Below, piece by piece: positions 22,950 through 57,436 of a stretch of 64,000 nucleotides of DNA. The notes under the pieces were generated by a model. The model made no database searches and was not told where the DNA came from. It saw nothing but the letters and a program-made list of their open reading frames with translations. Origin of the DNA: Anaerolineae bacterium. GTDB taxonomy: Bacteria > Chloroflexota > Anaerolineae > B4-G1. The first letter of the stretch is position 1; every line of letters begins with the position of its first letter. The stretch covers positions 736 to 64,735 of the forward strand of contig JBHIET010000007.1 of NCBI GenBank assembly GCA_046760785.1, in the 5' to 3' direction. The position numbers were made by a program, and so were the translations under genes.

Positions 22950-24260
22950 ATGGAAAGACAAGACCTAGAGTCCCTGCCCCTCGCGCTGCCCGATGGGGTA
23001 GATTACGACGAGTATCTCATCGGCACGTATCTGGCTTCGTTCCCGGCCAGCGTACCCATCCCTCGTCTGGCCCCGGCGCTGGCCATCGAGCAATCCACCG
23101 GCACCTGGGTCCCGGTTCCGGGGGAGACCCTCGAGGTGCGCCGCCAGCACGTGGCAAAAGTCATCGGCGTCTACGAGGTGCCGGACCTGGAATACACCGT
23201 CCCGCCGAAGCTGGAGACGCGCAACTATGTCATCCAGATCGCCTTTCCCCAGGTCAACATCGGCTCGCAGATCCCGATGCTGTTGACGACAGTGGTGGGC
23301 AACATCTCGATGGGTGGCCGCATCAAGGTGCTCGACATCCGCTTCCCCAAAAAGTTTGTCGAGGGGTTCCAGGGACCCAAGTTCGGCATCCAGGGTGTAC
23401 GGGAGGTGCTGGGTGTGTCCGACCGCCCGCTGCTCAACAACATGATCAAGCCCTGCACCGGCTACACGCCAGAGGTGGGGGTCGAGCTGTTCCGGGCAGC
23501 GGCCCTGGGCGGCTGCGACATCATCAAGGACGACGAGTTGTTGGCCAATGCCTCCTTCAACGAGGTGCAGGCGCGGGTAAAGCTCTACATGGAGGCGGAG
23601 CGACAGGTCTACGAGGAGACCGGCGAGCACACGTTGTACACCGTCAACGTCACCGACGAGATTCCGCAGGTCTTTGAGAACGCCCACCGGGCGGTAGAGC
23701 TGGGCTGCAACGCCCTTATGGTCAACTACCTGGCGACCGGCTTCCCGGTGCTGCGCGCGCTGGCAGAGGACCCCGAAATCAACGTGCCCATCCTGGGCCA
23801 CATGGACGTGGCGGGGGCGTACTACATGTCGCCCTACCACGGTGTCACCTCGCACCTCATCCTGGGCAAGCTGCCCCGGTTGGCCGGCGCCGACATCGTC
23901 GTCTTCCCGGCCCCCTACGGCAAGGCCCCGGTGCTCAAGGACAAGTTCATCAACGTGGCCCGCAACCTCTCCTTCCCCTTTCACGACATCAAGCCTACCT
24001 TTCCCATGGCCTCCGGCGGCATCACTCCCTCGATGGTGCCCAAGGTGATGAAGGACCTGGGGAGCGACATCGTCATTGGTTCTGGCGGCGGCATCCACGC
24101 CCACCCGGACGGGCCAGTGGCGGGCGGCAAGGCGTTCCGTCAGGCGATTGACGCCACGATGCAGGGCGTCCCACTCAAGGAGGCGGCCAAAGAGCATCTC
24201 GAGCTGGCGGCCTCTTTGGAAGCGTGGGCGGATCCGTTTGGGAAGGGGATTTCGCTGTAA
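22950..24260 (+). CDS. RuBisCO-like protein (form IV RLP)
   Basis: RuBisCO large-chain pattern: VVGNI, MIKPCTG (equivalent of IKPKLG with the second Lys changed to Cys), GGCDIIKDDE (KDDE conserved), GHMDVAG (HR changed to HM), SGGI and GSGGGIHAHPDG. Several carboxylase residues are substituted. Confidence 0.85.
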   Translation: MERQDLESLPLALPDGVDYDEYLIGTYLASFPASVPIPRLAPALAIEQSTGTWVPVPGETLEVRRQHVAKVIGVYEVPDLEYTVPPKLETRNYVIQIAFPQVNIGSQIPMLLTTVVGNISMGGRIKVLDIRFPKKFVEGFQGPKFGIQGVREVLGVSDRPLLNNMIKPCTGYTPEVGVELFRAAALGGCDIIKDDELLANASFNEVQARVKLYMEAERQVYEETGEHTLYTVNVTDEIPQVFENAHRAVELGCNALMVNYLATGFPVLRALAEDPEINVPILGHMDVAGAYYMSPYHGVTSHLILGKLPRLAGADIVVFPAPYGKAPVLKDKFINVARNLSFPFHDIKPTFPMASGGITPSMVPKVMKDLGSDIVIGSGGGIHAHPDGPVAGGKAFRQAIDATMQGVPLKEAAKEHLELAASLEAWADPFGKGISL

Positions 24261-37407: not shown

Positions 37408-37617
37408 GTGAACGAGAGAGAAATGGGAACCGTCAAGTGGTTCAGCAACGCCAAGGGGTACGGATTCATCTCGCGTGACGGAGGTGAGGATGTGTTTGTC
37501 CATCACACCGCCATTCAGAGCGAGGGCTTCCGGACGCTCGAAGAAGGCCAGCGCGTCGAATTCAACGTCGAGCAAGGCCCTAAGGGCTTGCAGGCCACCA
37601 ACGTCACCCCGCTGTAA
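37408..37617 (+). CDS. cspA: Cold-shock protein (CSD)
   Basis: Contains [15 protein letters not shown] (RNP1) and VFVHH (RNP2). The start is GTG 37408 or ATG 37423. Confidence 0.95.
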
Positions 37618-37673
37618 GACCGAGAGCGGGCTTTTGTGCGAAGTGGCAGCGAGCCATTTCCAGGGGAGGTAAT

Positions 37674-37979
37674 ATGACTAAGAAATTGTACGTCGGCAAC
37701 CTGGGTTATAGCGTGACGACGAACATGTTGGAGGAACTGTTCGCCTCTGTCGGCGAGGTCACGTCGGTCAACGTCATCACCGACCGCATGACGGGGCGAT
37801 CACGCGGGTTCGCCTTTGTTGAAATGGCCAAGAGCGCGGACGCGCAGAAGGCCATCGCTGAACTCAACGGCCGTGATGTGGAAGGTCGGGCGATTAAGGT
37901 AGCGGAGGCCCGTCCGCAACGGGATCGTCAGAGTGGTGGCTACGACGACCGACGTAGGGGACGACGTCGTCGTTATTAG
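37674..37979 (+). CDS. RRM-type RNA-binding protein with an RG-rich tail
   Basis: Contains KLYVGNL (RNP2) and RGFAFVEM (RNP1). Confidence 0.9.
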   Translation: MTKKLYVGNLGYSVTTNMLEELFASVGEVTSVNVITDRMTGRSRGFAFVEMAKSADAQKAIAELNGRDVEGRAIKVAEARPQRDRQSGGYDDRRRGRRRRY

Positions 37980-38063: not shown

Positions 38064-38987
38064 TTAGCCTTCTGAAGTCGCCACCACGTTCCACTCATTT
38101 AATTCCCCTCGCACCGTCTGCAGCAGCACCTCGACCTTCAGCTCGGCCAGGGTATAGCAAGGAGCTTCGAGGTGCTCGGCCAACGTTTGTGCCAACCCCT
38201 GGTCGAAGGCCTCGTGCTCCATGTTGATCACCACCGAGCGGATGTGATTCTGCGAGAACATCTCGGCGATGCGGCAGGCCTCCTCCTGCGGCGGCAGGTT
38301 AGTCATCGAGACGTTCCCCGCGCCATCGGTAAGTAGCACCATCAGCGGCATCAGGTCGGGGTGCTGTCGTAGCTCGCGGATGATGACCTCGTAGGCGGCC
38401 TGTAACCCGGCTGAAAGGGGAGTCTTGCCACCGACGGGGATGTCGGTCAGCGCCCGCCGCGCCAGCTCGACGCTGTTGGTAGGCGGGAGCACGACACGGG
38501 CGTCGTTCTTCTGGAAGACGACGAGTCCAACCCGGTCGCGCTGCTGGTAGGCATCCGTCAGCAGCGACATAACGGCCCCCTTCGTCGCCTGCATGCGTTC
38601 GGCCACCGCCATAGACCAGGAGGCGTCCACGACGAAGAGCACCAGGTTGGCGGCACGACGCACGCGCACCTTGCGCTGGTAGTCGTCGGGGTGCAACGCC
38701 AGTGCCGGGCCACCCTCGCGCCTCCGCTCTCTCTGGTGAGGGGCAGCAGCGCGAAACGTGGCGTCGAAGGCCAGGTCACTGGGATCGCCAGGAGAGGGGC
38801 GGGCCTGGACGTAGCGCCCGCGCTTGCGATCGGTGCGGGTCCGGCTGCGGCGACCGCCCGTGGAGCGGGTCAGCCGGTCGAGAGGTGTATCCAGCCGACG
38901 TGGCGTGAAGTCCTCACCGACGGCGACCTCTTCGCCGCCCTCCCACCAACGGCCCTCCGACGGCCACTGGGGCACGGTCTGCAGCAC
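38064..38987 (-). CDS. ChlD/BchD-like acidic linker + vWA domain protein (as called, GTG start, no good RBS)
   Basis: Contains the MIDAS motif VVDASWSM and vWA body VLLTDGAGN. The upstream frame is open back into the A9 run of the preceding gene (see findings). Confidence 0.8.
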   Translation of the reverse strand: MLQTVPQWPSEGRWWEGGEEVAVGEDFTPRRLDTPLDRLTRSTGGRRSRTRTDRKRGRYVQARPSPGDPSDLAFDATFRAAAPHQRERRREGGPALALHPDDYQRKVRVRRAANLVLFVVDASWSMAVAERMQATKGAVMSLLTDAYQQRDRVGLVVFQKNDARVVLPPTNSVELARRALTDIPVGGKTPLSAGLQAAYEVIIRELRQHPDLMPLMVLLTDGAGNVSMTNLPPQEEACRIAEMFSQNHIRSVVINMEHEAFDQGLAQTLAEHLEAPCYTLAELKVEVLLQTVRGELNEWNVVATSEG

Positions 38988-39016
38988 CGGCTCTCGCGCT
39001 ACCTCGCGTTGCTCAT

Positions 39017-39073
39017 GGGGAGACTCCTCGTCACCGGTCTCCCCGGCTACGCTTTTTTTTTACCCATCACCTC
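39017..39073 (-). promoter_or_regulatory. Candidate -1 frameshift / transcriptional slippage cassette
   Basis: On the minus-strand mRNA: GAGGUGAU (39073-39066), GGGU, A9 (39061-39053), GCG, UAG stop (39049-39047), then an 8-bp stem GGGGAGAC (39044-39037) / GUCUCCCC (39024-39017) with a 12-nt loop, starting 8 nt after the A-run. Confidence 0.4.
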
Positions 39074-40147
39074 TACATCAGTGTCGCTCTCTTGTCCAGA
39101 CTCGGCCTCAACCGGGTTCTGGGCGCGGGCCTCGGCCAGCCGCTCCGAAAGATCACCCAGCGTGACCTCCGCCTGTTGCAGCGGATGTCGCTTCAGCCGG
39201 TGGGGTAATGCCAGTTCGGCGGCCAGCAGGATGTCACGGTCGCTCAAACGGGTGTGCCCCTCGAAAGCAGCGTGGGCGCGGGCAGCTTTGAGCACCACCA
39301 GATCGGCGCGATGGCCATCTACCCCCAACTCGCTCATCGCCGTCGCGATCGTCGCCAGGTCCGATTGAGAGTGCCTAACATTGGGCAAGAGACGGCGGGC
39401 GCGGGCGATTTCCCTCGAAAGCTTCTGCTCCTTGGGAGCCCATTCCGCACAGACCCCCTCGGGGTCGGCCTCATAGGCCAGATTGCGTTCCATGATCGCC
39501 ATCCGGGCAGCGGGGTCGCCGATGCCACGGATGTCCACACAGAGGGCGAAGCGGTCGAGAAGCTGGGGGCGCAGGTCCCCCTCCTCCGGGTTCATCGTGC
39601 CGATGAGGATGAAACGGGCGGGGTGGCTGAAGGAAATGCCCTCCCGCTCCACGACGTTGACCCCCATCGCCGCGGCGTCGAGCAGTAAGTCCACGACGTG
39701 GTCGTCCAGCAGGTTGACCTCGTCCACGTAGAGGACGCCCCGGTTGGCCGCCGCGAGGACCCCTGGCTCGAAGTGCCGCTCTCCCTTCTGGATGGCGCGT
39801 TCGATGTCCAGCGTGCCCACGACGCGGTCCTCGGTCGCGCTGACGGGCAGGTCCACGAAGCGCGTGCGCCGGCGAGCGCGGGGCAGTTCCCCCCCAGTAT
39901 CATTCCGCTCGCGGCACTCGGTACACCACGTCGCTGGCTGGTCGGGGTCGCAACCGAAGGAGCAGTCGGCAACCACCTCGATCTCAGGCAGCAGCGCGGC
40001 CAGCGCGCGAGCAGCGGTAGACTTCGCCGTGCCGCGTTCGCCCCGAATGAGCACCCCGCCGATCTGGGGATAAATGGCATTCAGTATCAGAGCGCGCTTC
40101 ATGCGCTCCTGCCCGACAATAGCAGCGAATGGGAAGATAGGTGGCAT
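39047..40147 (-). CDS. ChlI/BchI-like AAA+ chelatase ATPase subunit
   Basis: Starts MPPIFPFAAIVGQERMKRAL. Contains Walker A GERGTAKS and Walker B VLYVDEVNLL. Ends ...VMGKKKA immediately after the A9 run. Confidence 0.9.
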   Translation of the reverse strand: MPPIFPFAAIVGQERMKRALILNAIYPQIGGVLIRGERGTAKSTAARALAALLPEIEVVADCSFGCDPDQPATWCTECRERNDTGGELPRARRRTRFVDLPVSATEDRVVGTLDIERAIQKGERHFEPGVLAAANRGVLYVDEVNLLDDHVVDLLLDAAAMGVNVVEREGISFSHPARFILIGTMNPEEGDLRPQLLDRFALCVDIRGIGDPAARMAIMERNLAYEADPEGVCAEWAPKEQKLSREIARARRLLPNVRHSQSDLATIATAMSELGVDGHRADLVVLKAARAHAAFEGHTRLSDRDILLAAELALPHRLKRHPLQQAEVTLGDLSERLAEARAQNPVEAESGQESDTDVEVMGKKKA

Positions 40148-40192: not shown

Positions 40193-40426
40193 TCACGACT
40201 TGAGGCCACAAGTCGCGCACGAGGCCGAGAGTGTGCAAGAGCCGCACGAAGAGCCTGCCCCCGCGATCACTCCCTCACTTCCGACGGCCGAGAACAATGA
40301 GATCACACGGCGCGTGTGCTCGCTGCCACACTTGGGGCAGACGATGGATGCGTCGGCGTCAGTCATTGCCCGCAGGGCATCAAAACACGTCTCGCAATCG
40401 AGACACTTATACTCATATAGTGGCAT
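40193..40426 (-). CDS. FmdB-family zinc-ribbon protein
   Basis: MPLYEYKCLDCETCFD...CPKCGS, the typical CxxC_CxxC_SSSS family N-terminus, with a Cys-rich tail. Confidence 0.8.
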   Translation of the reverse strand: MPLYEYKCLDCETCFDALRAMTDADASIVCPKCGSEHTRRVISLFSAVGSEGVIAGAGSSCGSCTLSASCATCGLKS

Positions 40427-40482
40427 GGTTCCTACTTCACCCTGCTCTCTCAATGGAGAGCCTTTCGCAATTCAAACTGCCA

Positions 40483-44616: not shown

Positions 44617-44672
44617 GGGTGTGGTAGAATGATATTGTGCAATGAGGGTGTGAGTCAAGAAGGGAGGAGTTG

Positions 44673-47600
44673 ATGCCCACAGTCTCTGAGATCGAACAAG
44701 TCCTGAATGAATACGTTGAAAAGTACATTCCGGTGATGTTGCGCCAGGGATACCACCTGGTGCTGGTCAAGGGCGGGCCGGACTATCCCCACCTGCCGGA
44801 ACAATCCCACTTTGCTCACATCATCAACGGCGCGTTTGGCCTGACGCAACTGGTCAAGTTCCTGATCGAGCACAACGTGCGCGTCCCCGGGCTGGACGAA
44901 GAAACTTTCCGCAAGGCGCTGGCGCTTTTCACCGTTCACGAAGTACACAAGGATGCCGAGGTGGAGCTGCTGGGCGATTCCCAGTTCAGCATCCCCCTGG
45001 AACGGCTGCGGGAAGAGTACCAGCGCCTGGGACTGGACCAATTCGCCCCGGTGGACGAGTACCTGATGCGGGCGGCCAATGTCCACAAGCGTAGCAGCAA
45101 GCACGGCGATTTGCTGCTCAGCGATGATCCGAACGCTGCACAGCTATGGCTATGGGTGCGCATCGCCGACACCTTCGCCTCGGTCAAGACGCCGGAAGAG
45201 GCGAAGGCTTCGCTGGAGGGCTATCTGGCCGATCTGGGGCCGGCCTTCGCCCCCAAGAGTCCGCCGGGCAAGTATACACTCTATTACCACGAGATCAAGG
45301 ACGTGCGCGGTGTGCTGACCAACACCGTCCACCAGGCTGTCGCTCAACAGTTGGCGGGCGACCTGGGCTTTTTCCCGCTGCTCTACTTCGCCACGGGCAC
45401 GCTCTATCTGGGACCGGCTCAATTGGACGGTGACGCCGATGACGCGATCCCCGCCGTCGCCGAATGGGTGCTCCAATCGCTGACCCAGGGCGGTGGTGGG
45501 GACGCCATCCGCGACGGGCTGCGTCGCCAAAAGTTCGACTTTGAGCGCTACGTCTACGCCTTTGCCACAGTGAAAGACCTGCTCCAGGTCGTCCACGATG
45601 AAACGCTGACCGCCAAACCCGACGCACGGGTAGCCCTCAAGGAGATAGACGGCCTGGTCAGCAAGCGCCAGGAACTGAGCGCCGAGTGGCGGGACACGGT
45701 CGAGGAACGGTTTGGCATCCAACTGCTCGACCCCAAGGAGCACAAAACCTTCAACGAACTCTGGTCCCAGGTACGGCGCTACCTGCTCTATGTGGACACG
45801 CTGTTGCGCGACCTGAACCCGGCCGAGAACCGACTGGAGTGGTTCCTGCGTGTGTTTGCCATCCCGCAGCCTTATGCCGACAACCTGCGTCGGGAAGCCG
45901 ACATCTGGGCGAAAGGCGGGATCGGCAAGTACGTGCTGGTGATCGCCTACCACTTCCTGCGCGGCCCCGACTTTGCCGACCGCCCGGCCGAGGCCACGCC
46001 GCCGGAGCAGGTGCTGGAGCGGTTGCACCGCCGCGTGCTGGAGGCCTTTCGCCAGGTGGATACCCAGGCCGGACGGCAGGCCGCCGTGGCCGAGCTGGGG
46101 TTGCGCCAGGACCTGGAGGCGTACCTGGCCGAGCATCTGTACCTTTCCTTTGCCCCGGCCAGTCAACTGGCCGCTGACAGCCTGGCGGGCTATGTGTCGC
46201 CGAAGCGCAAGGGGCACACGGGCCAGGTGTGTTCCATCTGCAACCGGCGCAGCGAGTACGTGCAGTCCTTGCGGGCGGGCATCCTGGACGACTTTGGGCG
46301 GGTTTTTTCCAATCGGGTGCTCCCCGCCCGCGAAGCGCCCCAGGGCAACCGCCTCTGGTGCCCGGTCTGCCAGTTGGAGTTCATCTTGCGCAAGGTGATG
46401 GGCATGGGCCTGCCCTCCACTGCCCATTACAAGAACTCGCGCCGCATTTATCTCTATGTGTTGCCCACCTTCTCTTTCACCCTGGAGCACCTGCGCCTCT
46501 TCGAGCCGCTGCTGAAACCGTTCCACCGCGTGACCGGCTTGCCGGTGCGCGATTACGGCAAGGGCGATCCCGGCTTGCCGCGCTACTGGTTGGAGCATCG
46601 CGCCTTCGACCCGGATTGGGTGGAGGACTTGCAAGAGGTGTTGGAGCGCGAGGCGGACAAGATCGCCGGCTGGGGCGGACGGGGCTTTGTGGGCGAACGG
46701 GTCTCGCTGGGACGCATCACCGGCCAGCCGCACTACTACCTCATCACTTGGGAGAAAGCGGCCCGCGACACCGAACCCGACGACGCCCGCATCGCCACCC
46801 GCACCGAGGCCTGGTGCAAGGCGCTCTTCGCCGCGGCAGTCATCAGCGGGCTGACCAGTTGCAAGGTCTACGTCACCGAACGGCCTTACCTGCCGGTGGC
46901 CGACCCCGCCGAGTTGAGGGCTACCATCACCCTCGATGGTCCGCCCCCGGCGCTGCGGGGGCTGCTGGGCGGGCGCACCGACGAGGTCACGCTTTACGGG
47001 CGGGAAAAGGGAGAGCGCAGCGGCCTGGAGCGGGTGTTGGACCTGAGCGCGGCGCTGTGGGCGGTGACCGCCGACGTGCACGCACCCCAACGCAACACCA
47101 AAGACAAGCACATCTCCGGCCGGCTGGGGACGCTGAATACCTCGCCGCTGGCCGGGGCCACGTTCTACAAGGAGTATGGCCGCCTGAACGAGGGGCAATC
47201 GCCCTTTCCCACATTGACGACGGCCTGTGAGGTACTGCTGGAGGTTCAAGGAGGTGAACTGATGGACCTGGTAGAAAAGATCGCACAAAAGAGCCTGGAG
47301 ATTGCCCTGCCGCGAGGTGCATCCGGCCGGGGCAAGGCGCGGCGCTACGAACTGGTCTTCCGCGAGGCGGTCTCCGCCATGCGCCAGGCGCAAAAGATGA
47401 TCCCGGAGATGCGAGAGGCGGCCATCGGCGGGAGGCGCCCGTCGGCGCAGAGCATCGCCGAACTGAAGCGGTTGACGGCGGGCACGCTGCTCAAGGGGTT
47501 GGAGCGCCGCCAGGAGAGCAGGCGGGGCGAGATCTTTGTCCGCGCCTGGGGCGACCAACTGGGCCGGCTGGTAGGCGAGTTCGTGGACCTGCTGGTGGAC

Positions 47601-47762
47601 GAGCTCTACCTGGGCCGCGCTGGGGGCAGCTTCGCCCGCTTCCTGCGGCTGGAGAACAGCCTGGCCGATGGGATCTATTACTACACCGACCGGCACCTGG
47701 GAGAAGAGTGGGCAGCGTACAAGGCCGCCAGAAAGGAGAGCGGGGAGCAGACCAATGAGTGA
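44673..47762 (+). CDS. cas10d: Type I-D large subunit Cas10d (Csc3) with an N-terminal HD-like domain
   Basis: 1029 aa. Has H...H(E)xxHK motifs (SHFAHIING, FTVHEVHKD, RIADTF) and the Zn ribbon CSICN...CPVCQ. It lies in an operon with csc2/csc1/cas3'. A GGGAGGAG RBS precedes the ATG at 44673. Confidence 0.8.
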   Translation: MPTVSEIEQVLNEYVEKYIPVMLRQGYHLVLVKGGPDYPHLPEQSHFAHIINGAFGLTQLVKFLIEHNVRVPGLDEETFRKALALFTVHEVHKDAEVELLGDSQFSIPLERLREEYQRLGLDQFAPVDEYLMRAANVHKRSSKHGDLLLSDDPNAAQLWLWVRIADTFASVKTPEEAKASLEGYLADLGPAFAPKSPPGKYTLYYHEIKDVRGVLTNTVHQAVAQQLAGDLGFFPLLYFATGTLYLGPAQLDGDADDAIPAVAEWVLQSLTQGGGGDAIRDGLRRQKFDFERYVYAFATVKDLLQVVHDETLTAKPDARVALKEIDGLVSKRQELSAEWRDTVEERFGIQLLDPKEHKTFNELWSQVRRYLLYVDTLLRDLNPAENRLEWFLRVFAIPQPYADNLRREADIWAKGGIGKYVLVIAYHFLRGPDFADRPAEATPPEQVLERLHRRVLEAFRQVDTQAGRQAAVAELGLRQDLEAYLAEHLYLSFAPASQLAADSLAGYVSPKRKGHTGQVCSICNRRSEYVQSLRAGILDDFGRVFSNRVLPAREAPQGNRLWCPVCQLEFILRKVMGMGLPSTAHYKNSRRIYLYVLPTFSFTLEHLRLFEPLLKPFHRVTGLPVRDYGKGDPGLPRYWLEHRAFDPDWVEDLQEVLEREADKIAGWGGRGFVGERVSLGRITGQPHYYLITWEKAARDTEPDDARIATRTEAWCKALFAAAVISGLTSCKVYVTERPYLPVADPAELRATITLDGPPPALRGLLGGRTDEVTLYGREKGERSGLERVLDLSAALWAVTADVHAPQRNTKDKHISGRLGTLNTSPLAGATFYKEYGRLNEGQSPFPTLTTACEVLLEVQGGELMDLVEKIAQKSLEIALPRGASGRGKARRYELVFREAVSAMRQAQKMIPEMREAAIGGRRPSAQSIAELKRLTAGTLLKGLERRQESRRGEIFVRAWGDQLGRLVGEFVDLLVDELYLGRAGGSFARFLRLENSLADGIYYYTDRHLGEEWAAYKAARKESGEQTNE
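47262..47762 (+). CDS. cas11d: Candidate internally translated small subunit Cas11d (nested in the cas10d frame)
   Basis: A near-perfect internal SD, AAGGAGGTGA (47249-47258), lies just upstream of the in-frame ATG at 47262. The 166-aa helical product starts MDLVEKIAQKSLEIAL... Confidence 0.45.
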   Translation: MDLVEKIAQKSLEIALPRGASGRGKARRYELVFREAVSAMRQAQKMIPEMREAAIGGRRPSAQSIAELKRLTAGTLLKGLERRQESRRGEIFVRAWGDQLGRLVGEFVDLLVDELYLGRAGGSFARFLRLENSLADGIYYYTDRHLGEEWAAYKAARKESGEQTNE

Positions 47763-49968
47763 ATTCGACTTTGGACCAATCTCACGCACGGTGGACGCCT
47801 CAACCGGTCGAGGCGATGCCATCAACTTTGCCTCACTGCCGGTCCACGAAGCGCTGACGGCCCTGCTGGCGAGCAACAAGGCGAGCAACAACCGGGATGA
47901 ATTTGTCGCCTGGCTGTGGCACGACCTGTTCAAGCCGTTGTTCTGGTGGCAATGGAATGCACGTAAGAGAAAATTTGATTGGATCCACTATCCCAACAAT
48001 AGACCAAATGATCCACTAAATGTTGAGGCACACTGGTCAAGTGTGACAGGAATTCCATCCGGTCTGGTGGAAACGCATCACCTTCACAGTGGCCGCAAGT
48101 TTAGGTTTGGGGAAACGGAAACGATTAACAACGAGTTCGACCAGGTTGCCATAGGAAAGGATGCCCGTTTTGTCCAACTCTCCTTCCTGGTCGAACCTGC
48201 TACCCATACTGCCCTGCTCCGTGCCGTGATCGCCGACGCCTTTATGGAAGTCGTGACGAAAGCGGTTGCTGCATCCATCGGAACGGAACTGGCAACCAAG
48301 TCGCCTACCTTCAAACGAGTCCGCTATGTTTTTGATTTCGATCAGGTCGCGCTGTCTAGCCCGCCCACCAGTTCAGAGATTGCGTCTCTGGCGAACCAAT
48401 ACACTTTGGACGTCACTTCTGATGAACTGATCATCAAGCACTTGGTGCCCCTTGCCAAACCGGACCTGGACGGACGTCACGTTGAGGTTGTGCTTGATTT
48501 GACCGCCGAGCCACCGACTGCAGAGCGGTTTGGCCAGGGCATAATCTCGTTGGTGGAGTTGTTGACCGTTTACCAAGACAGTCGTACCATCCTAATGGGT
48601 ATCCCTCAGTTTCTGACGGTGGATGTTGGGCAACTGACGCAACAGGTGCAGAGTGCAACAGAGCAGCGGCTACAGGGCCTGGATATTCGGACAATGGCAA
48701 ACACGGTTGAGCTCAAGCGGCAGGGCACAACACAAGGTCGTGTGAACTGGGATGCTCTGCCACTGAACAAGCAAGGTCAGGAGGTTGATTTGCTGGCACA
48801 CGTGTTTGCCGAGCAGGTGGAAATCCGCCTGATCGACCGAGGCCGATTGCTCCAAAAGGTCAAAGCCTCCAAAGGGAAATCCTTCGAGGTTCGTTTCCTC
48901 AGCGAGATCGTGTCGCATCCCATTGCATTGCTTGCTGGCAAACCTCGTCACTGCCGTTTCTGCAACTCGGCGTTCGAGAGCAATCTTCCCCCAGCCGACG
49001 CAAAAGTAGGAGGCTATTTCACCGATATTGAGCACGTTGGCTTTGGCGGCGACATTTGCCCGATGTGCCGTGTTTATATACTCAACTCCCACAAGTCCCA
49101 TACCGAGGCCGAAAGAGCGCAAGGCATTACAGGGGACCGGAAGGGATATCGTGGGGCTTTTGCCATCGCTTCTCCTTCCTCCCATTTCACCTATGATGGG
49201 GAACAGTGTCAGCTCATCGAGCAACCTCCACTGGATATCGGCGGCCGCTTCGCTGCACCCTTGCAACGGGCCACAGTCACCCTGCAGGAATATGCCCTGT
49301 TCAATATGCTTTCTCGTCGGCTCATCGCCCAGATTTGGACCCGGCTGGATGCTGCTAACGAGATGCAACCACTGCCCCTGCCATATGTGGGGGCCATTCT
49401 GTTAACCCAAAACAAAGCGGCTCAAATTCGGACACTGTTCGACTGTCTGGAGGTGCTCTTTGACAAAGTGGAACTTGTGGCATATCCGTTCAAGGTAACC
49501 GTACAGCCGGCTGCAGAACTGGCTTTCGAGATGGCGGTGAACGACCTGAAACAGCATCACACCAAACATACCTATCTGAAGACCAGCCCCATCATTGTCC
49601 CTGTACATCCAGACAGCAAGTTCACCCTCCTGGTGGACAACGGACTTCAGTTGGAGGTGAACTGCAAGTTCTTTGAGGATCGAAGGCGAGTGAACGAGCT
49701 TTTGGAGGACATCAAAGGTCAGAAGCGACAACACAATTGGCTTCTGGCCGTGCTTCAAGGCATAGACCCGGTGACAGCAACGGCGGAAACTTTCTATGAT
49801 TATGACGTGCCACTCCGGCAGGCCGAAGAGGCGTTTTGGAATACACGCTTGAATGCCGAGTCTCTTGCCCAGCAATGGCAACGATATGAAAAAGTGTGCG
49901 ACGAGGTTGGCCGCATTGTGGCCAGGTATCCGATGTTGATTGAGTTCTTTGCCAAACCAGGGAGGTAA
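47755..49968 (+). CDS. Second large-subunit-like protein: N-terminal HD motif + Zn ribbon (Cas10d-like / type IV-C Csf1-like)
   Basis: 737 aa. The ATG overlaps the cas10d stop (ATGAGTGA). Contains PVHEAL...AWLWHDLFKP (H...HD..K) and CRFCN-x41-CPMCR, which parallels CSICN-x44-CPVCQ of Cas10d. GC is lower than in the flanking genes. Confidence 0.6.
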   Translation: MSEFDFGPISRTVDASTGRGDAINFASLPVHEALTALLASNKASNNRDEFVAWLWHDLFKPLFWWQWNARKRKFDWIHYPNNRPNDPLNVEAHWSSVTGIPSGLVETHHLHSGRKFRFGETETINNEFDQVAIGKDARFVQLSFLVEPATHTALLRAVIADAFMEVVTKAVAASIGTELATKSPTFKRVRYVFDFDQVALSSPPTSSEIASLANQYTLDVTSDELIIKHLVPLAKPDLDGRHVEVVLDLTAEPPTAERFGQGIISLVELLTVYQDSRTILMGIPQFLTVDVGQLTQQVQSATEQRLQGLDIRTMANTVELKRQGTTQGRVNWDALPLNKQGQEVDLLAHVFAEQVEIRLIDRGRLLQKVKASKGKSFEVRFLSEIVSHPIALLAGKPRHCRFCNSAFESNLPPADAKVGGYFTDIEHVGFGGDICPMCRVYILNSHKSHTEAERAQGITGDRKGYRGAFAIASPSSHFTYDGEQCQLIEQPPLDIGGRFAAPLQRATVTLQEYALFNMLSRRLIAQIWTRLDAANEMQPLPLPYVGAILLTQNKAAQIRTLFDCLEVLFDKVELVAYPFKVTVQPAAELAFEMAVNDLKQHHTKHTYLKTSPIIVPVHPDSKFTLLVDNGLQLEVNCKFFEDRRRVNELLEDIKGQKRQHNWLLAVLQGIDPVTATAETFYDYDVPLRQAEEAFWNTRLNAESLAQQWQRYEKVCDEVGRIVARYPMLIEFFAKPGR

Positions 49969-49972
49969 TTCA

Positions 49973-50452
49973 ATGGCTGAAAATCAGAAATCATCGCGGG
50001 AACAGCGTCTGCGCCGGGCTTACGAAGCCATCGAGCAGATGCAGTTGGGCGAGCGCGAAGCGGAAGTCAAACTGGCGCTCAAGGCGTTGCTGATAGCGCG
50101 AGGGTGCATTCGTCTGCCTGAGACACCGCAAGCCCGCCGCAAGACACTTCAGCGGCTCTATCCGGCACTCGTCAAGTATTCGAGAGCCTCGGAAGCGGAA
50201 ACACTGGGTGCTCTGGTAAACGACGTGATCGGTGCTCTGTCGCCCGATTGGGATTTCTCCCCCCATCGCGCTCTCGGAGACCCTGTGGAAGACATCTACC
50301 AGGAGAGCGAAACGGCCAAACGGGCCAGAGAGCTCCTTAAGGAAGAGACCGTCCCTCTGGTCATCTTGATGAAAAAGATCTACCAAAGCTTCATCGAACC
50401 CGAAGAAGCGACTGAGGAAGAACAGGCAGAAGAGGAGGCCAGCCATGCATAA
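49973..50452 (+). CDS. Small all-helical protein, Cas11-like small subunit candidate
   Basis: 159 aa, preceded by a GGGAGG RBS. It is predicted helical by composition, with an acidic tail. Its position between the large subunit and a Cas7-like gene supports the call. Confidence 0.5.
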   Translation: MAENQKSSREQRLRRAYEAIEQMQLGEREAEVKLALKALLIARGCIRLPETPQARRKTLQRLYPALVKYSRASEAETLGALVNDVIGALSPDWDFSPHRALGDPVEDIYQESETAKRARELLKEETVPLVILMKKIYQSFIEPEEATEEEQAEEEASHA

Positions 50453-51437
50453 CCTGAAACTGTACGCCTTGTATCAGGCCAAGCAACCCATCATTCACAC
50501 TGAGGAGACCATCGGCAACATCTCCAAGATCAAAAAGATGCGCGTCATTCACGATGGCAAGCCTGTACCGGTGCCGACCCTCTCCGGCAACAGCTTCCGC
50601 GGCCAGTTCCGCGACATCCTGGCGGACCAGATGTTCGCCATTCTGACCAACGGTGGTGCCAGCCGTGTCAAACTCCCCCCTGACCATTACGGCGTTATCT
50701 ACAGCGGCGGCGTGATGAAGGAGGGCTCCAAGATGGGGGAGCAGATGAAGGCGATGGCTGACGCCATTCCTATGCTGCGACTGATGGGCTCGGCCTTTGG
50801 CAACGTGATGCTTCCATCAAAGTTGGCCGTGACCCACATCATTCCCTACGCGGTGGAAACGCAAGCCGTTGTCCAATCTACGGTGAATGCGCTGCCGGAC
50901 GAAGGGCGTGCCTTGTTGCCGGCGGAGCCACCCAGTCGCGGTGATTTGCTGTTCAACGATGGCCCACTGACCCGCAAGGATGACACCAAAGACCTGACCA
51001 AACAGCGCTACGCCGAGACAGAAGCAGACCTGGGCCAGGACGAAGAACGCACCCGCCGCCAGATGATCTACTACGTCGAGTGTATTCCTGCCGGAACGTT
51101 CCTGCTCCAGGAGATGTACAGCAAATATCCCCTGGACGATCTGGAACTGGGCTGCTTCTTCGATGGCCTGCTCACTTTTCTCCAGGAACCCAGCCTGGGT
51201 GGACGCAGCGCAGCAGGTTATGGGCAGGTACTGGCAAGGTACTGGGTACAATTGGAAGGCAAAGACCCGTTCGAGTTGACATCGGAGCAGGCGATCACAC
51301 TTCCCCAGCCGGTGCAGGATGCTATTGAGCAATACCGAAAGTGCGTGGAGAAACAGCAACAAGCTTTTCTCGGCGCGTTGAAAGCCAAAACCATTTCTGA
51401 GGAGGCGCAAGATGACGCCCCCGACTCCACGGAGTAG
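50445..51437 (+). CDS. RAMP protein, Cas7-like (Csf2/Csm3-like backbone subunit candidate)
   Basis: 330 aa. Contains TLSGNSFRGQFRD (compare the RAMP motif SGxSxRGxxR), LMGSAFGN, and the G-rich loop SLGGRSAAGYGQV. There is an 8-nt overlap with the previous gene. Confidence 0.65.
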   Translation: MHNLKLYALYQAKQPIIHTEETIGNISKIKKMRVIHDGKPVPVPTLSGNSFRGQFRDILADQMFAILTNGGASRVKLPPDHYGVIYSGGVMKEGSKMGEQMKAMADAIPMLRLMGSAFGNVMLPSKLAVTHIIPYAVETQAVVQSTVNALPDEGRALLPAEPPSRGDLLFNDGPLTRKDDTKDLTKQRYAETEADLGQDEERTRRQMIYYVECIPAGTFLLQEMYSKYPLDDLELGCFFDGLLTFLQEPSLGGRSAAGYGQVLARYWVQLEGKDPFELTSEQAITLPQPVQDAIEQYRKCVEKQQQAFLGALKAKTISEEAQDDAPDSTE

Positions 51438-52506
51438 GAGTAAAAGAGCTTTTCCTCTGAACGAGGAAGCCTGGCAACTGCTCAATGATACTGCCAGGGC
51501 AGTATCTTACGACCTGAGCGACGATACCGTCTACGAGCTGCGTCTGCGCCTGCAAACGCCCGGCATCTTTGCCCTGTACAAGGCCGACATCCCGGCTCCG
51601 GGACTGCCCATGCTGGATGGCTTCTTAAAGTTCGTGGCCTTTCAACAAGCGATGGACCAGGTAATGCGGAAAAGGCCAGACTTGACCAATGACTTGCTGT
51701 GGCAATGGAACCTGGCGCTTCGTGACACCCGGTACTGGATAGACTTTTGTATCCCCATTCGCCAAGAGACACTCAATAGCGGCATTGTGCTCTATGACTG
51801 TTCGGTCGGTTTGCCGGTGACTCCAGAAGATGACGTTCTCTATCCGACGGGCGCCTTTTTTGCCTGCGGGGGTAACCTGACCACCTACCCATCTGAAGAA
51901 AAAGGGCCGGCCGACCAGATTGCCTTGCGTCGCCGCTCTGTAGAACCAGTTTATCGACCCTTTGAATTGACCGGTAAATTGAACCCCCAGAGTGGTTCCA
52001 GAAAGGCGTTGGACAACCGTATCTATTACGCTCTCACCCAGGAATACACCTTCTACTTCCGAGGGGACAAAGATGGCGTCAGGCAATTATTGCACTTTGC
52101 TCTTCAGCAAGGGGTCGGCATCGGGAAAAAGACTTCGTTGGGGTATGGGCGCATTGCCCAGCTTGAGATTCAACCTGCCAACCAGTGCGTTACTCTCGGA
52201 CACGACATCGGTTTGCCTGGTGTGCCCCGGATAGCCTTGCTCAAGAACGTTCCTTATCAGGAACTCCAACGCCGAAGCATCCGGCAGAGTGGTGAGTTTG
52301 GGCTTGTTCAGGTAAAAGAAGGGAATCAGTGGAAGGACATCCTTACGCAGAATGAACGGGACCAAAACGAGAGGTTGTTCGGTGCCCGCGAGTTCAGCCT
52401 GGCCTCGCCCATCGAGACCTTTGATTGTTACTATCCGCCCTATTGGCGACGTGAAGGTCGCACGCAGGTGCTGAGATACGGCACTCTGCTCATACCACGC
52501 TCGTAA
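51412..52506 (+). CDS. RAMP protein, Cas5-like (Csf3-like candidate)
   Basis: 364 aa. Contains PMLDGFLKFVAF near the N-terminus and the G-rich loop GVGIGKKTSLGYGRI. A GAGGAGG RBS lies inside the upstream gene. Confidence 0.55.
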   Translation: MTPPTPRSRSKRAFPLNEEAWQLLNDTARAVSYDLSDDTVYELRLRLQTPGIFALYKADIPAPGLPMLDGFLKFVAFQQAMDQVMRKRPDLTNDLLWQWNLALRDTRYWIDFCIPIRQETLNSGIVLYDCSVGLPVTPEDDVLYPTGAFFACGGNLTTYPSEEKGPADQIALRRRSVEPVYRPFELTGKLNPQSGSRKALDNRIYYALTQEYTFYFRGDKDGVRQLLHFALQQGVGIGKKTSLGYGRIAQLEIQPANQCVTLGHDIGLPGVPRIALLKNVPYQELQRRSIRQSGEFGLVQVKEGNQWKDILTQNERDQNERLFGAREFSLASPIETFDCYYPPYWRREGRTQVLRYGTLLIPRS

Positions 52507-52520
52507 AGAAGGAGGTAAAA

Positions 52521-53525
52521 ATGACTCTGAAGACTTTACAACCCTACGCCAGCTATTTCGTTCCCGAGATCCCGCGCACACCCACCAATCGCTACGCCAG
52601 CATCATCCTGCTGCGGGAGACCAAGTCCTACGCCATCTTCACCACCGAGGGCGGCGAGCAGCAGGACGTGGAAGAGACCCCCGCCGGCCCGGCCCACACC
52701 GAGCCGACCACCCGCCTGGTGATGTTCAAGCGCAAGCAGGTGGCCCCGGAGCGACGCACCGGCAAGGCATTGCTGCGGCAATACGGTGTCTTTCCCTATG
52801 CCATCCAGGACGGACGGGTGGTCTATGGCGAAGAGGCGCTTCAGGCAAGGAAGCACTACGAGGACTGCTACCTCACCGAGGGTCTCTGCACCCACTGCCC
52901 CGACTGCCTGATCTACGGCTACGCCGCCATCGAGGCCGAAGGCGCCCGCAAAGCTCGCTTGATGACCGACACCTGCTTCACCGTCCGCCCCTACGAGATC
53001 ATCCAGAAGCAGGTCAAGTTCAACGTCATTGACGAGGCCCGGCACACCTCCGGCACCATCACCGAGTACGACTACACCACGCCGGGCGTCTTTCTCCCCG
53101 CCGTGGAGACGACGGTGGACCTGACTGCCGACGAGTTCGCCTACGTGCTGGGCAACGTCCTGCGCACCACCCGCTACGGCAAGGAGAGCACCCGCCAGGG
53201 CTTTGTGCGCAACCACATCCTGGCCATCGCCTTCTCCGACGTGGAACTCTTTGCCAACCTGGAGTTCACCCAGGCCCTCTACGACGCCCTGGTTGGCGCC
53301 GGCAAGGACCTGGCCGCCGAGGGCCTCTCGCTGGCCGACTTCCAACAGCACGCCGAGGCCGTCATTCAGCGGTTGACGGAGCAGTTGACCGGGCGGCTCA
53401 CCCTGGTCACCGGAGAGGAACTGGCGGGCATCCTGGAGGACGTGCGCGCCCTGAACCAGGACGAGGAGCGTCTGGCCGGGTTCCTACGAGACCTGAACAC
53501 GGCTTCGGCGTCGTTTGTGGTGTGA
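52521..53525 (+). CDS. csc2: Type I-D Cas7 (Csc2)
   Basis: 334 aa. Contains the LCTHCPDCLIYGYA Cys cluster and a Csc2-like body (FNVIDEARHTSGTITEYD, TRYGKESTRQGFVRN). AAGGAGG RBS. Confidence 0.8.
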   Translation: MTLKTLQPYASYFVPEIPRTPTNRYASIILLRETKSYAIFTTEGGEQQDVEETPAGPAHTEPTTRLVMFKRKQVAPERRTGKALLRQYGVFPYAIQDGRVVYGEEALQARKHYEDCYLTEGLCTHCPDCLIYGYAAIEAEGARKARLMTDTCFTVRPYEIIQKQVKFNVIDEARHTSGTITEYDYTTPGVFLPAVETTVDLTADEFAYVLGNVLRTTRYGKESTRQGFVRNHILAIAFSDVELFANLEFTQALYDALVGAGKDLAAEGLSLADFQQHAEAVIQRLTEQLTGRLTLVTGEELAGILEDVRALNQDEERLAGFLRDLNTASASFVV

Positions 53526-53659
53526 GGTCGCACGGCGGTTGAAACCGCATGCTGCGGGGTGCGAAACCGCCTGCGGCGGTTGGGGGGGCTGCGCCGGCAG
53601 GCTTCGCCGCCCCCAGCCCGCGAATTCATTCGCCGGGCAGAAAGAGAAGGAGCATCAGT

Positions 53660-54406
53660 ATGCACATCTACCGCATCGCCATCGAGCTGCTCGACTACAT
53701 CTTTTATGCCACCACCGAACGGGGCAAGGTCTACGAGACAGGGGCCTTCATCCACAACTATGCCCTGGCCTACGCCCTGGGCCTGGGGCGGGGAGAGACC
53801 TACACCTACGCCAACCTGAAACAGAAACCGCACTACCTGGAGGAATTGACGCCGCTGAACGGTCGCCTCTACCTCACCCCCGCTGCGCCCCGGCAAGTGG
53901 CCCACCGTCTGGTGCAGTGGAACACCATCCGCGAGGGGTATGCCTTTCCGGGCAAGGAACCGTCGGTGGGCTACCCCGACTGGGGCTTTGCCCGCATGCT
54001 GCGGCCTGGCTCTCGTTTTCTGTTCTACCTGCTTGCGCCCGACCCTGCCGCCTTGCCCGATGCACCTGCGCTCCGTGATCTGACAGCCGGACGGCCGATA
54101 CGGATACGGCTGGGCAAGTTCCCCGGCAAGGCCCGCTTGCAGGCGCAGCAGGCGGACAGGGTAGTGACGCGAGAGGGGCCTTTCCAGACGACGGCCATGC
54201 TCAACTGGCGCGACCTGGAGACCGACCCCCAGGTGTGCGACGTGGTCGCCGCCAGCCTGCCCACCCGCCTGCTCAGTCGCGCCCACTTTGCGGAAGGACC
54301 GTCCTACGAGGCTCATTTTGGCGATGACCGGGTTCGGCTACCAGTGCGGATGCGCTTCCTGGCCCGGCCGCCGGAAACACGTCGTCGCGCAAGGAGTCGC
54401 CGATGA
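53660..54406 (+). CDS. csc1: Type I-D Cas5 (Csc1)
   Basis: 248 aa, starting MHIYRIAIELLDYIFYATTERGKVYETGAFIHNYALAYALGL (Csc1 signature as I recall it). AGAAGGAG RBS. Confidence 0.75.
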   Translation: MHIYRIAIELLDYIFYATTERGKVYETGAFIHNYALAYALGLGRGETYTYANLKQKPHYLEELTPLNGRLYLTPAAPRQVAHRLVQWNTIREGYAFPGKEPSVGYPDWGFARMLRPGSRFLFYLLAPDPAALPDAPALRDLTAGRPIRIRLGKFPGKARLQAQQADRVVTREGPFQTTAMLNWRDLETDPQVCDVVAASLPTRLLSRAHFAEGPSYEAHFGDDRVRLPVRMRFLARPPETRRRARSRR

Positions 54407-56511: not shown

Positions 56512-56536
56512 GGTAGGTGGGAGTGGAGAGGGAACG

Positions 56537-57409
56537 ATGAGCGCGAACGACGATATGCTCTACTCTATCGTCCTCATCCTCACCCCCACGCGCGCGTCGA
56601 GCGTCCGCGCCACGATGGGGTATCAGGCCCACGCTGCCTTCCTGAAGACGGTGCGCGAATCGGACCCCGCCCTGGCCGAGGTGCTGCACATGCCCGATAT
56701 GCCTTGCCGGCCGTTTACCGTGTCGCCCTTGCGAGGAACGCCGCGGCCTCAGAATGGGCGTATCCGCCTTTCGCCGGAAGAGACCTACTGGCTGCGCTTT
56801 ACCATCCTTTACCCGCCCATTTTCGAGCAGTTCATGCGCCGCTTTCTGCGGGGGGAAGGACGCCCCGTCGTCCGGCTGGGTCACGCCGTGCTGCTCATCA
56901 AAGAGATTCTCGCCACACCCGGAAGCCATCCCTGGACCGGATACACCTCGTGGGGAGAGATCGCGTCCGGCGCTCGGCCAGAGGCCGAGATCACGCTCGA
57001 CTTTGTCTCTCCCACTGCTTTTGGGTTTGGGCAAAAGGATTGGGGCAAGAAGGTGGTCGTGTTGCCAGAACCGGACGCGGTTTTCGGCAGCCTGGCCCGC
57101 TCGTGGAACAACCTGGCCCCGCCACCACTGCAAGTGGAGCGGGATGCGTTGAAGATCTATGTGGAGGAACACGTCGTCGTCAAGCGCATCAGTGATCTGC
57201 GCACACGGATGTTGCACTTCCGTAAGTCGCCCCAGGTGGGCTTCGTGGGACAGGTGACCTACGGCCTGATGGCGGAGAACGAGGCTGCCCGCTGTCAACT
57301 CAGCGCGCTGGCCGATTTTGCCTTCTACGCCGGCGTGGGGATGAAGACGACGATGGGGATGGGGCAAACCCGCCGGTGTGCTGACCAATATGGTCTACGA
57401 CGTCAGTGA
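56537..57409 (+). CDS. cas6: Cas6 crRNA endoribonuclease
   Basis: 290 aa with the C-terminal G-rich loop GVGMKTTMGMGQ. Start at MSANDDMLYSIVLIL after GGAGAGGGA. Confidence 0.8.
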   Translation: MSANDDMLYSIVLILTPTRASSVRATMGYQAHAAFLKTVRESDPALAEVLHMPDMPCRPFTVSPLRGTPRPQNGRIRLSPEETYWLRFTILYPPIFEQFMRRFLRGEGRPVVRLGHAVLLIKEILATPGSHPWTGYTSWGEIASGARPEAEITLDFVSPTAFGFGQKDWGKKVVVLPEPDAVFGSLARSWNNLAPPPLQVERDALKIYVEEHVVVKRISDLRTRMLHFRKSPQVGFVGQVTYGLMAENEAARCQLSALADFAFYAGVGMKTTMGMGQTRRCADQYGLRRQ

Positions 57410-57436
57410 CAGCGGCCCTTTTCAAGGGACTTTGGA

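Follow-up and report, generated by a model that had tools for sequence, protein, structure and literature searches.

Does a contig of an Anaerolineae bacterium carry two neighbouring genes, one for an ATPase and one for a vWA protein, or a single gene that is decoded in two ways? The question is raised by positions 38064 to 40147 of the window, by which we mean the whole stretch of 64,000 nucleotides that was analysed (assembly GCA_046760785.1, contig JBHIET010000007.1). The annotation of the source MAG lists two entries here, MFQ6100048.1 ("ATP-binding protein", termed ORF1 below) and MFQ6100047.1 ("VWA domain-containing protein", 38987..38064, termed ORF2). The following elements of the locus are referred to throughout:

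39047..40147, minus strand: ORF1, ChlI-like AAA+ ATPase (short product), with Walker A GERGTAKS and Walker B VLYVDEVN
39066..39073, minus strand: SD-like motif GAGGUGAU, a possible stimulator
39053..39061, minus strand: A9 run in codon phase 0, AAA AAA AAA (Lys-Lys-Lys)
39059..39053, minus strand: in-phase heptamer A_AAA_AAA within the A9 run
39047..39049, minus strand: zero-frame UAG stop, codon 2 past the A9 run (GCG UAG)
39017..39044, minus strand: hairpin with an 8-bp stem and a 12-nt loop that starts 8 nt past the run, a possible stimulator
39044..39037 and 39024..39017, minus strand: the stem arms, GGGGAGAC and GTCTCCCC (the second arm is also listed as GUCUCCCC)
38064..39053, minus strand: continuation in the -1 frame, with acidic linker, AAPxQ region and a vWA part with MIDAS-like DASWS
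38169..38642, minus strand: vWA domain of the long product (VWA, ORF2 residues 116-273; VWA_2, 116-222)

ORF1 runs on the minus strand from 40147 to 39047, encodes 366 amino acids and has the 3' end GGT AAA AAA AAA GCG TAG, which is the junction that a first-pass annotation of this DNA had described. The same annotation had claimed that the -1 frame is open from the A-run into a 307-aa ORF of linker and vWA domain. We can confirm this, as the frame that starts at the last A of the run reads SVAGETGDEESPHEQREVAREPVLQTVPQW... and is stop-free as far as 38064. Joined to ORF1, the continuation gives a ChlD-like conceptual fusion of 694 amino acids (the long product). Its mass would be about 75 kDa, compared to about 40 kDa for the short product, and the predicted junction peptide is (K)SVAGETGDEESPHEQR. 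As listed, ORF2 (38987..38064, minus strand, 307 aa) starts with a GTG codon that is located 60 nt past the zero-frame stop. Because the closest GAGG ends 14 nt 5' of it, this GTG has no convincing RBS, in agreement with the earlier description of ORF2 as an ORF with a GTG as its only start.

The domain content of both halves is well defined. The AAA+ module (GERGTAKS, VLYVDEVN) and the MIDAS-type DxSxS of the vWA part (DASWS) can be read directly in the translations, and Pfam matches are Mg_chelatase, AAA_5 and AAA_lid_2 for ORF1 and VWA_2 and VWA for ORF2. Taken alone, ORF1 covers positions 1-348 of the NCBIfam model TIGR02442 ("putative cobaltochelatase") with 510.3 bits and ORF2 covers positions 387-640 with 276.2 bits. 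The conceptual fusion aligns in one single stretch (residues 5-667, model positions 1-640 of 641) and reaches 797.1 bits, a full-length match above the curated cut-off of 779.45 bits. The fusion of about 690 amino acids with AAA+, linker and vWA parts that had been proposed for this locus is thus borne out as a chain of 694 residues with one continuous family match. Scores stay below the cut-offs of both Mg-chelatase equivalogs, with 425.0-427.5 bits against 466.95 for BchI-ChlI (TIGR02030) and 440.4 bits against 499.55 for BchD-ChlD (TIGR02031). By these models the gene is ChlI/ChlD-like, but it is not classed as a Mg-chelatase subunit. A protein search with the fused query returned single-chain proteins of 640-768 amino acids and 74-90% identity as its best 120 database matches. 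This search listed in-frame homologues only, a ranking bias that arises since full-length matches score highest, and scans at the DNA level that are blind to the reading frame were used to offset it. Recoded fs-chlD genes are recognized by a ChlI-like ORF that is followed by a vWA ORF in the -1 frame, and this is the arrangement found here. Judged by its sequence, the minus strand at 38064-40147 holds one gene that belongs to the fused ChlI/ChlD type, known as "fs-chlD" in the literature.

The A9 run that separates the two reading frames stands out in its surroundings. It had been noticed as the longest homopolymer in the first pass, and it is in fact the sole homopolymer longer than 7 in the 64-kb window, which has a GC content of 60.9%. 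Dinucleotide shuffles predict 0.10 such runs where one is found, and any such run occurs in 6 of 100 shuffles. AAA makes up 25.5% of the Lys codons of the window, and the Lys codons of both ORFs outside the run are 12 AAG and 1 AAA. The DNA scans ignoring the frame yielded a set of 108 distinct related junctions, all of which have a run of A7-A10 at the homologous place. The downstream part lies in the -1 frame in 89 of these junctions, is in frame in 15 and requires +1 in 4. In every one of the 89 -1 junctions the downstream frame can be read without a stop from the run onward, and a zero-frame stop follows at most 16 nt from the run in 82 of them. Their in-phase heptamer is AAAAAAA (64 junctions), AAAAAAG (24) or AAAAAAC (1). 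The 89 junctions originate from many projects and both halves are intact throughout. Conservation of the run with a near stop in orthologs, which the first-pass annotation had named as a check, is therefore seen in 89 of the 108 distinct related junctions.

We consider it highly probable that the locus is one recoded gene in which slippage on the A-run gives a short I-type and a long D-type product. Slippage at the run is well supported because the run, the near stop and the open -1 frame are conserved and because the run is not an under-called A10 (see below). Standard decoding would end at the UAG in codon 2 past A9 and yield the 366-aa AAA+ motor (I-type). A one-base slip at A9 would move decoding into the -1 frame and yield the 694-aa protein of AAA+ domain, acidic linker and vWA domain (D-type adaptor). 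In this way the two partners of a class-I-chelatase-like motor complex would come from a single gene. We infer the synthesis of both proteins, as well as their ratio, from the nucleotide sequence.

Several other explanations have to be weighed against recoding. Loss of one base in sequencing or assembly would turn a plain in-frame fusion into the observed junction. Close relatives are often in-frame fusions, a second gene of the window (radical SAM/SPASM) is one base short, and the only independent contig that is identical, a Logan assembly (SRR29324583) with 100% identity across 3483 nt, may have a common origin with the reads of the source MAG. An under-called A10 had accordingly been held against the frameshift in the first pass. 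However, the in-frame relatives also carry A9, not A10, and differ from the window at the base after the run (GCC/GGC GTA compared to GCG TA), and for this reason an under-called A10 is ruled out. The same GGT-A9-GCG-TAG-CCGGGGAGAC junction is furthermore present in four other assemblies (L166-L169) of a lineage in which the DNA of the gene is 85.6% identical, and -1 junctions, 89 of them distinct, recur in data from many projects. On these comparisons the -1 junction is independent of assembly error, and we regard a lost base as extremely improbable. A young pseudogene, in which a recent mutation inactivated an in-frame chlD-type gene, deserves as little credence. It would fit with the single-base difference between in-frame and -1 alleles inside a population that is 98-99% identical and with an immediate clade of the window that is mostly in frame. 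It does not fit with the wider clade, where -1 is the majority (89 of 108) and both halves are always intact, with an identical -1 junction across lineages that are 14% apart in DNA, or with an ORF2 that has accumulated no further stops or indels. As to the contig in general, some assembly error is possible because one extra base is also required in the radical SAM/SPASM gene (about 13.16-13.24 kb of the window); the exact ORF of this gene was looked up in public assemblies and gave no record.

The reading taken by the source record, two separate genes, would have the vWA protein initiate at its own GTG (38987), or arise by termination-reinitiation, in the absence of any fusion. Apart from the record itself, the GTG 60 nt past the stop and the signs of downstream initiation in some constructs of Antonov et al. 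(2013; PMC3711429) speak for it. Against it, the GTG lacks a usable SD and the called start varies among close relatives (GTG VLQT... here, ATG MREPM... in L166), while the -1 frame is open to the run in 89 of 89 junctions. From the run to the GTG there are 22 codons, and in the -1 frame these align with the single-chain, in-frame homologues. Moreover, a vWA protein that lacks the AAA-like N-domain does not have the architecture of a medium chelatase subunit (TIGR02442, TIGR02031). We consider two independent genes very unlikely. An independent ORF2 start was also rejected as a candidate across the set of relatives, as a start codon with an SD-like 4-mer ahead of the vWA part is no commoner in -1 loci (8 of 89) than in in-frame loci (3 of 15).

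If the A-run slips, the slip could occur at two levels, as a ribosomal -1 shift on A_AAA_AAA or as the addition of one A by RNA polymerase. The predicted junction peptide is identical in both cases. The first-pass annotation had pointed to a dnaX-type trio of SD-like motif, slippery run and hairpin. All three elements are present. The GAGG of the SD-like GAGGTGAT (39073..39070) lies 8 nt 5' of the run and, as stated earlier, 10 nt 5' of A_AAA_AAA; the 8-bp stem begins 8 nt downstream of the run, again as described, and the run is conserved. The two stimulators fare less well. The GAGG is missing from the closest relatives (L082, L083, L166-L171), and among A9 relatives an SD-like motif occurs in 6 of 50 against a background of 0.09, hence at about background level. 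In the window the 53 nt 3' of the run fold at -23.3 kcal/mol (z = -3.3), an energy below that of all other 50-nt segments of the gene (average -15.0 +/- 3.9), and when upstream sequence is added the minimum-energy structure does not contain the full stem. Aligned over 13 close relatives, 67% of the pair positions of the stem region can pair, which is not above shuffles, and no compensatory change or covariation was found in these 13 sequences. The hairpin, whose recurrence in orthologs the first-pass annotation had also named as a check, is not conserved in the closest relatives. A search of Rfam returned no match at an E-value of 1 or below within 38800-39300.

Relatives with shorter runs behave differently from this. 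Runs of A7 lie in phase 2 in 12 of 12 cases and runs of A8 in phase 1 in 10 of 10, so that an in-phase A_AAA_AAG results, and the 3' hairpins of the A7 and A8 groups reach -21.4 and -19.5 kcal/mol compared to -15.1 and -14.4 in controls. The stem of the A8 clade shows compensatory changes. These A7/A8 relatives clearly display the predicted signals of classic ribosomal frameshifting. In A9/A10 relatives as a class hairpins are not enriched (median percentiles 0.55-0.59).

It is probable that ribosomal and transcriptional slippage both contribute on A9. For the allele of the window we lean slightly towards the ribosomal shift as the larger share, since its heptamer is in phase and a strong hairpin follows at 8 nt. 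RNA polymerase as the main slipper, producing A10 mRNAs from the T9 template and from these the long protein, is a serious candidate to which we give somewhat less than even chances, and it can coexist with a ribosomal shift. Efficient slippage of bacterial RNA polymerase is known from runs of nine A/T (PMC5009743), the hairpin and SD enrichment of the A7/A8 relatives is missing in A9/A10, and in-frame and -1 alleles stand side by side at 98-99% DNA identity. Polymerase slippage could also supply the +1 that four relatives need, which a -1 ribosomal shift could not, although these four loci may be errors or pseudogenes. The in-phase A_AAA_AAA of the window with its strong hairpin at the typical 8-nt spacing and the clear reliance of short-run relatives on ribosomal signals count against the polymerase as the main source. 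Loss of the hairpin is compatible with either level, because long A-runs are also slipperier for ribosomes.

An arrangement in which one gene produces both the I-type and the D-type subunit had been thought undescribed in the first pass. This is not the case, since frameshifted chlD genes of magnesium/cobalt chelatases with poly-A sites were published between 2013 and 2022 (PMC3711429; PMC5009743; PMC9227772). Antonov et al. (2013 NAR; PMC3711429) measured -1 frameshifting of chlD in E. coli reporters and found 63% on A11, 40% on A9 and 10% on A7. A review has a section entitled "Magnesium chelatase: also regulatory?" (Atkins et al., 2016; PMC5009743), and fs-chlD was reported from Anaerolinea, Ornatilinea, Longilinea, Levilinea and Brevefilum (Kuznetsov, Milenkin & Antonov, 2022; PMC9227772). 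Frameshifted chlD is also treated in Antonov (2020 Mol Biol Evol 37:2268), as far as can be taken from its citation in PMC9227772. The window gene resembles these systems in all main points: a ChlI-like ORF is followed by a -1 vWA ORF and the two meet at a poly-A site (A_AAA_AAR), two adjacent genes are found in public records, and the short product corresponds to the small and the long product to the medium subunit. Similar genes are known from Chloroflexi (Herpetosiphon) and from Anaerolineae. We see no essential difference, and the gene of this MAG itself is not named in the fs-chlD papers. For annotation, this means that the two entries of the record should be one recoded gene, and the same applies to dozens of Chloroflexota MAGs.

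The comparison with dnaX is instructive in two directions. With E. coli dnaX (tau/gamma) the locus shares an A-rich heptamer, an SD-like motif about 10 nt upstream, a 3' hairpin and two products that have a common N-terminus and are needed together in one complex. However, the polarity is reversed: at this locus the short product comes from the zero frame and the long one requires the shift. A reversed arrangement is also mentioned for dnaX in PMC5009743. A further difference is that SD and hairpin lack conservation in the close relatives of this gene. In Thermus thermophilus dnaX slippage on nine A/T leads to two products at about 1:1 (PMC5009743). The A9 of the window satisfies the run-length criterion for slippage of this transcriptional type (at least 9 A/T). 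The likeness extends to a hairpin that may be dispensable, to nearby stops in the other frames (PMC5009743) and to an expected rough balance of the two products. A difference is that the long product of Thermus dnaX is in frame, as it is in the sister alleles L170, L171, L082 and L083 but not in the window allele.

The two-gene chelatases BchI/BchD, ChlI/ChlD and CobS/CobT likewise combine an AAA+ motor with an adaptor of AAA-like domain, acidic linker and vWA domain with MIDAS, and motor hexamers of class I chelatases bind their adaptor (bioRxiv 10.64898/2026.07.21.739949). In contrast to these pairs, a single gene is used here, the intact Walker A/B module of the I-type product is also part of the D-type product, and no gene for a large subunit (cobN/chlH) is nearby. 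None of the ORFs scanned across the 64-kb window is a cobN, chlH or cobalamin gene, and among 12 ORFs of at least 800 aa that flank 113 related loci none was CobN-like when judged by eye. Anaerolineae carriers that lack the large subunit were reported before (PMC9227772). For the gene studied here, "cobaltochelatase" is a family name only. Encoding AAA+ motor and adaptor in one gene would fix their co-expression, and co-translational assembly may be possible.

At least 14 changes of the frame state have occurred within the clade, and in-frame and -1 alleles of 98-99% DNA identity differ by one G adjoining A9. Because many close relatives have plain in-frame genes, the -1 alleles may simply be tolerated, with no advantage over the in-frame state. 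Rather speculatively, this lability of the frame state may mean one of two things: slippage on A9/A10 could lie near 50%, so that both states give similar ratios, or the indel could be a heritable switch by which the I:D ratio is inverted. If true, slippage of about 50% or an I:D switch would concern an Anaerolineae motor complex that functions in the absence of CobN/ChlH.

The minus strand of the window carries a chelatase-type gene whose AAA+ and vWA parts lie in different frames at a run of nine adenines. Re-reading this strand bore out the layout that the first-pass annotation had described for 38064-40147, namely a ChlI-like frame, the A9 run and an open -1 frame leading into the vWA part. 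The gene and its surroundings are as follows:

40147..39047, minus strand: ORF1, the ChlI-like AAA+ frame, 366 aa, ending GGT AAA AAA AAA GCG TAG
39061..39053, minus strand: A9 run at the 3' end of ORF1
38987..38064, minus strand: ORF2 as mechanically listed, the linker and vWA frame, 307 aa, GTG start
40193-40453: Zn-ribbon (FmdB-type) gene, upstream of the chelatase-type gene
37408-37979: RRM RNA-binding and cold-shock genes, downstream, opposite strand

From the last A of the run the -1 frame reads SVAGETGDEESPHEQREVAREPVLQTVPQW... and is stop-free down to 38064, and no usable SD is present for the GTG start of ORF2. The conceptual fusion of ORF1 with this frame has 694 aa. ORF1 matches the domains Mg_chelatase, AAA_5 and AAA_lid_2, ORF2 matches VWA_2 and VWA, and the source MAG is annotated with two genes (MFQ6100048.1 and MFQ6100047.1, "Anaerolineae bacterium", NCBI). 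The A9 run, initially described as the longest homopolymer noticed in the window, is indeed the only one longer than seven (window GC 60.9%), and shuffles give an expectation of 0.10 for the single run of this type. AAA makes up 25.5% of the Lys codons of the window, while ORF1 and ORF2 outside the run use 12 AAG and one AAA.

In an NCBIfam search, ORF1 and ORF2 fall on positions 1-348 and 387-640 of TIGR02442 ("putative cobaltochelatase"), a single-chain ChlI/ChlD-type model of 641 positions. The fusion matches this model in a single continuous stretch with 797.1 bits (cut-off 779.45); it scores under the BchI-ChlI and BchD-ChlD equivalog cut-offs and is therefore ChlI/ChlD-like without qualifying as a bona fide Mg-chelatase subunit. 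Each of the 120 top-ranking database proteins (74-90% identity) is a single chain (640-768 aa) that conserves G-K-K-K at the junction, and the -1 frame of the window matches their sequence between the run and the GTG. Full-length matches rank top, hence this list is skewed to in-frame genes, and two frame-blind scans were therefore done at the DNA level, one of species-representative genomes and one of metagenome contigs. We kept 108 distinct junctions with an N-domain at least 62% identical to that of the window. An A7-A10 run is present at all of them (108/108); relative to ORF1, the vWA part is -1 in 89, in frame in 15 and +1 in 4. No stop interrupts the downstream frame between the vWA part and the run at any -1 junction (89/89), and a zero-frame stop follows within 16 nt of the run in 82 and within 7 nt in 63 of these, so that the run and the near stop are largely kept among orthologs, a check proposed from the first reading. 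A start codon with an SD-like 4-mer precedes the vWA part at only 8/89 -1 loci, not more often than in in-frame genes (3/15). Judged from these comparisons, the junctions bear the marks of conserved recoding, and they fit neither two separate genes nor decay nor error. The four related loci with a +1 vWA frame (L067, L128, L158 and L163; one A9, three A10) are beyond rescue by a -1 ribosomal shift; they may represent errors or pseudogenes, or they may rely on polymerase slippage.

The first-pass annotation had regarded an under-called A10, that is a plain fused gene, as a serious alternative. A Logan assembly is 100% identical to the window over 3483 nt, A9-GCGTAG included, and may share its read source with the MAG. 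We consider more telling against an assembly error the sequences of four assemblies from other projects (L166-L169), in which the gene is 85.6% DNA-identical to that of the window and the junction GGT-A9-GCG-TAG-CCGGGGAGAC is identical. The nearest in-frame relatives read GGT-A9-GCC-GTA or GGT-A9-GGC-GTA. Since A9 is present in both frame states and one base directly 3' of the run differs, an under-called A10 is not what separates them, and this explanation was rejected. Two further close relatives, L170 and L171, are 98-99.2% DNA-identical to L166 and in frame via one extra G; A9-GCGTAG (-1) thus occurs in the four assemblies and A9-GGCGTAG (in frame) in these two. With genes of such identity in either state, both states coexist as a polymorphism in what is probably one species-level population. 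Across the clade, a neighbour-joining tree with Fitch parsimony requires the frame state to have changed 14 times or more. A -1 slip in in-frame alleles runs into a stop after 2-16 codons (7 for most members of the close clade to which the window belongs), and a short I-type product could come from such alleles as well.

The SD-like GAGG and the 8-bp stem, which together with the run had been put forward as three dnaX-type elements, were found where they had been placed, but conservation holds for the run only. The stem region of the window folds at -23.3 kcal/mol (z = -3.3), lower than all other 50-nt windows of the gene, and the stem has 8/8 pairs; the minimum-energy fold with upstream sequence added leaves the full stem unused. 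Its arms code for Gly-Glu-Thr and Ser-Pro of the linker. Among 13 close relatives 67% of the pair positions are pairable, no better than in shuffles, with no compensatory changes, and the closest relatives lack the GAGG. Thus, from sequence conservation, the run is the conserved element, and the SD-like motif and hairpin, present in the window, are not demonstrably selected. Among the related loci L001-L165, run length tracks the stimulators: A7/A8 runs have strong hairpins on their 3' side, which often covary, and SD-like motifs are frequent there, whereas A9/A10 runs come with neither. The 50 nt 3' of the run fold at -21.4 (A7) and -19.5 kcal/mol (A8), compared to -15.1 and -14.4 in other windows of the same genes, and the A8 clade conserves an 11-bp stem, with 6/16 predicted pairs kept via changes on both sides. 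An SD-like motif at dnaX-like spacing is found in 5/12 A7 and 6/10 A8 relatives, compared to 6/50 for A9 and 3/17 for A10 (background 0.09); mean fold energies of A9/A10 relatives equal those of controls (median percentiles 0.55-0.59). Phase is locked, with A7 in phase 2 in 12/12 and A8 in phase 1 in 10/10, giving an in-phase A_AAA_AAG.

Zero-frame decoding of the window gene would end at the UAG and yield the ChlI-like short product, and a one-base slip at A9 would yield the long AAA+/linker/vWA product, both partners then coming from one gene. The slip may be ribosomal, with an in-phase A_AAA_AAA and a hairpin at 8 nt, or transcriptional, by an extra A added by RNA polymerase. Bacterial RNA polymerase slips efficiently on nine A/T, which is used by Thermus dnaX (PMC5009743), and the window gene likewise has A9. 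In E. coli cassettes, frameshifting reached 63% on A11, 40% on A9 and 10% on A7 (PMC3711429). For the window allele we lean slightly towards the ribosome, and both levels would be expected to contribute. Class I chelatase motors consist of two subunits, a hexameric AAA+ subunit and an AAA-linker-vWA adaptor (bioRxiv 10.64898/2026.07.21.739949), whereas the window gene would supply both from one gene; its D-type product keeps intact Walker motifs in sequence. We found no cobN, chlH or cobalamin genes within the 64-kb window, and no cobN/chlH stood out by eye in the flanks of related loci; "cobaltochelatase" is a family name here, and the function is putative. Close relatives share the genes for an RRM protein, a cold-shock protein (CSD), a glycosyltransferase and FtsK in this neighbourhood; the upstream side varies, with Memo/AMMECR1/ROK in L082-L085.

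The arrangement had been thought undescribed, which is wrong given the published fs-chlD, the recoded chlD, of Anaerolineae. Antonov et al. (2013; PMC3711429) grouped 23 genes that shift to -1 on poly-A into a "magnesium chelatase" cluster; its members stand in annotation as two neighbouring genes, and the Chloroflexi genus Herpetosiphon is represented among them. [quoted passage not shown] The gene of the window is orthologous to this one and comes from the same taxon. The feature is real and was correctly read, its mechanism is well supported by comparative data, and it is already known. Any residual novelty would be confined to two observations that may or may not have been published before: the polymorphism between in-frame and -1 states within a species, and the presence of hairpins at A7/A8 runs as opposed to hairpin-less A9/A10 runs.

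A second split gene of the window, of radical SAM/SPASM type (12315-13603), has its radical SAM core at 12315-13352 and continues in the -1 frame with the SPASM domain at 13151-13603. The two halves have to meet at ~13158-13241, where homopolymers are limited to C5 (13164) and A5 (13186). The exact radical SAM ORF has no record in public assemblies, and the split may stem from misassembly, from decay to a pseudogene or from another cause. The window also contains a complete type I-D CRISPR-Cas locus (44670-59432, array ~60208-64000):

44670-47762: Cas10d/Csc3
52521-53525: Csc2
54403-56511: Cas3
56402-57409: Cas6
57619-58335: Cas4
58335-59432: Cas1
~60208 to window end: CRISPR array, 37-nt repeat GCTCAACAAAACAGAATCCCGACTGAGGGATTGAAAC, period ~73

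The product of 22950-24260 is a RuBisCO-like protein that NCBIfam matches best to the MtnW-type 2,3-diketo-5-methylthiopentyl-1-phosphate enolase, slightly below threshold (392 bits, cut-off 409); an FGGY kinase and GNAT acetyltransferases are encoded alongside. The segment 28396-31729 comprises genes for an Mrr-like restriction endonuclease and an N6/N4 DNA methylase plus an unassigned ORF, and its clearly lower third-position GC (0.51-0.58 compared to 0.7-0.87 in neighbours) suggests a horizontally acquired island.
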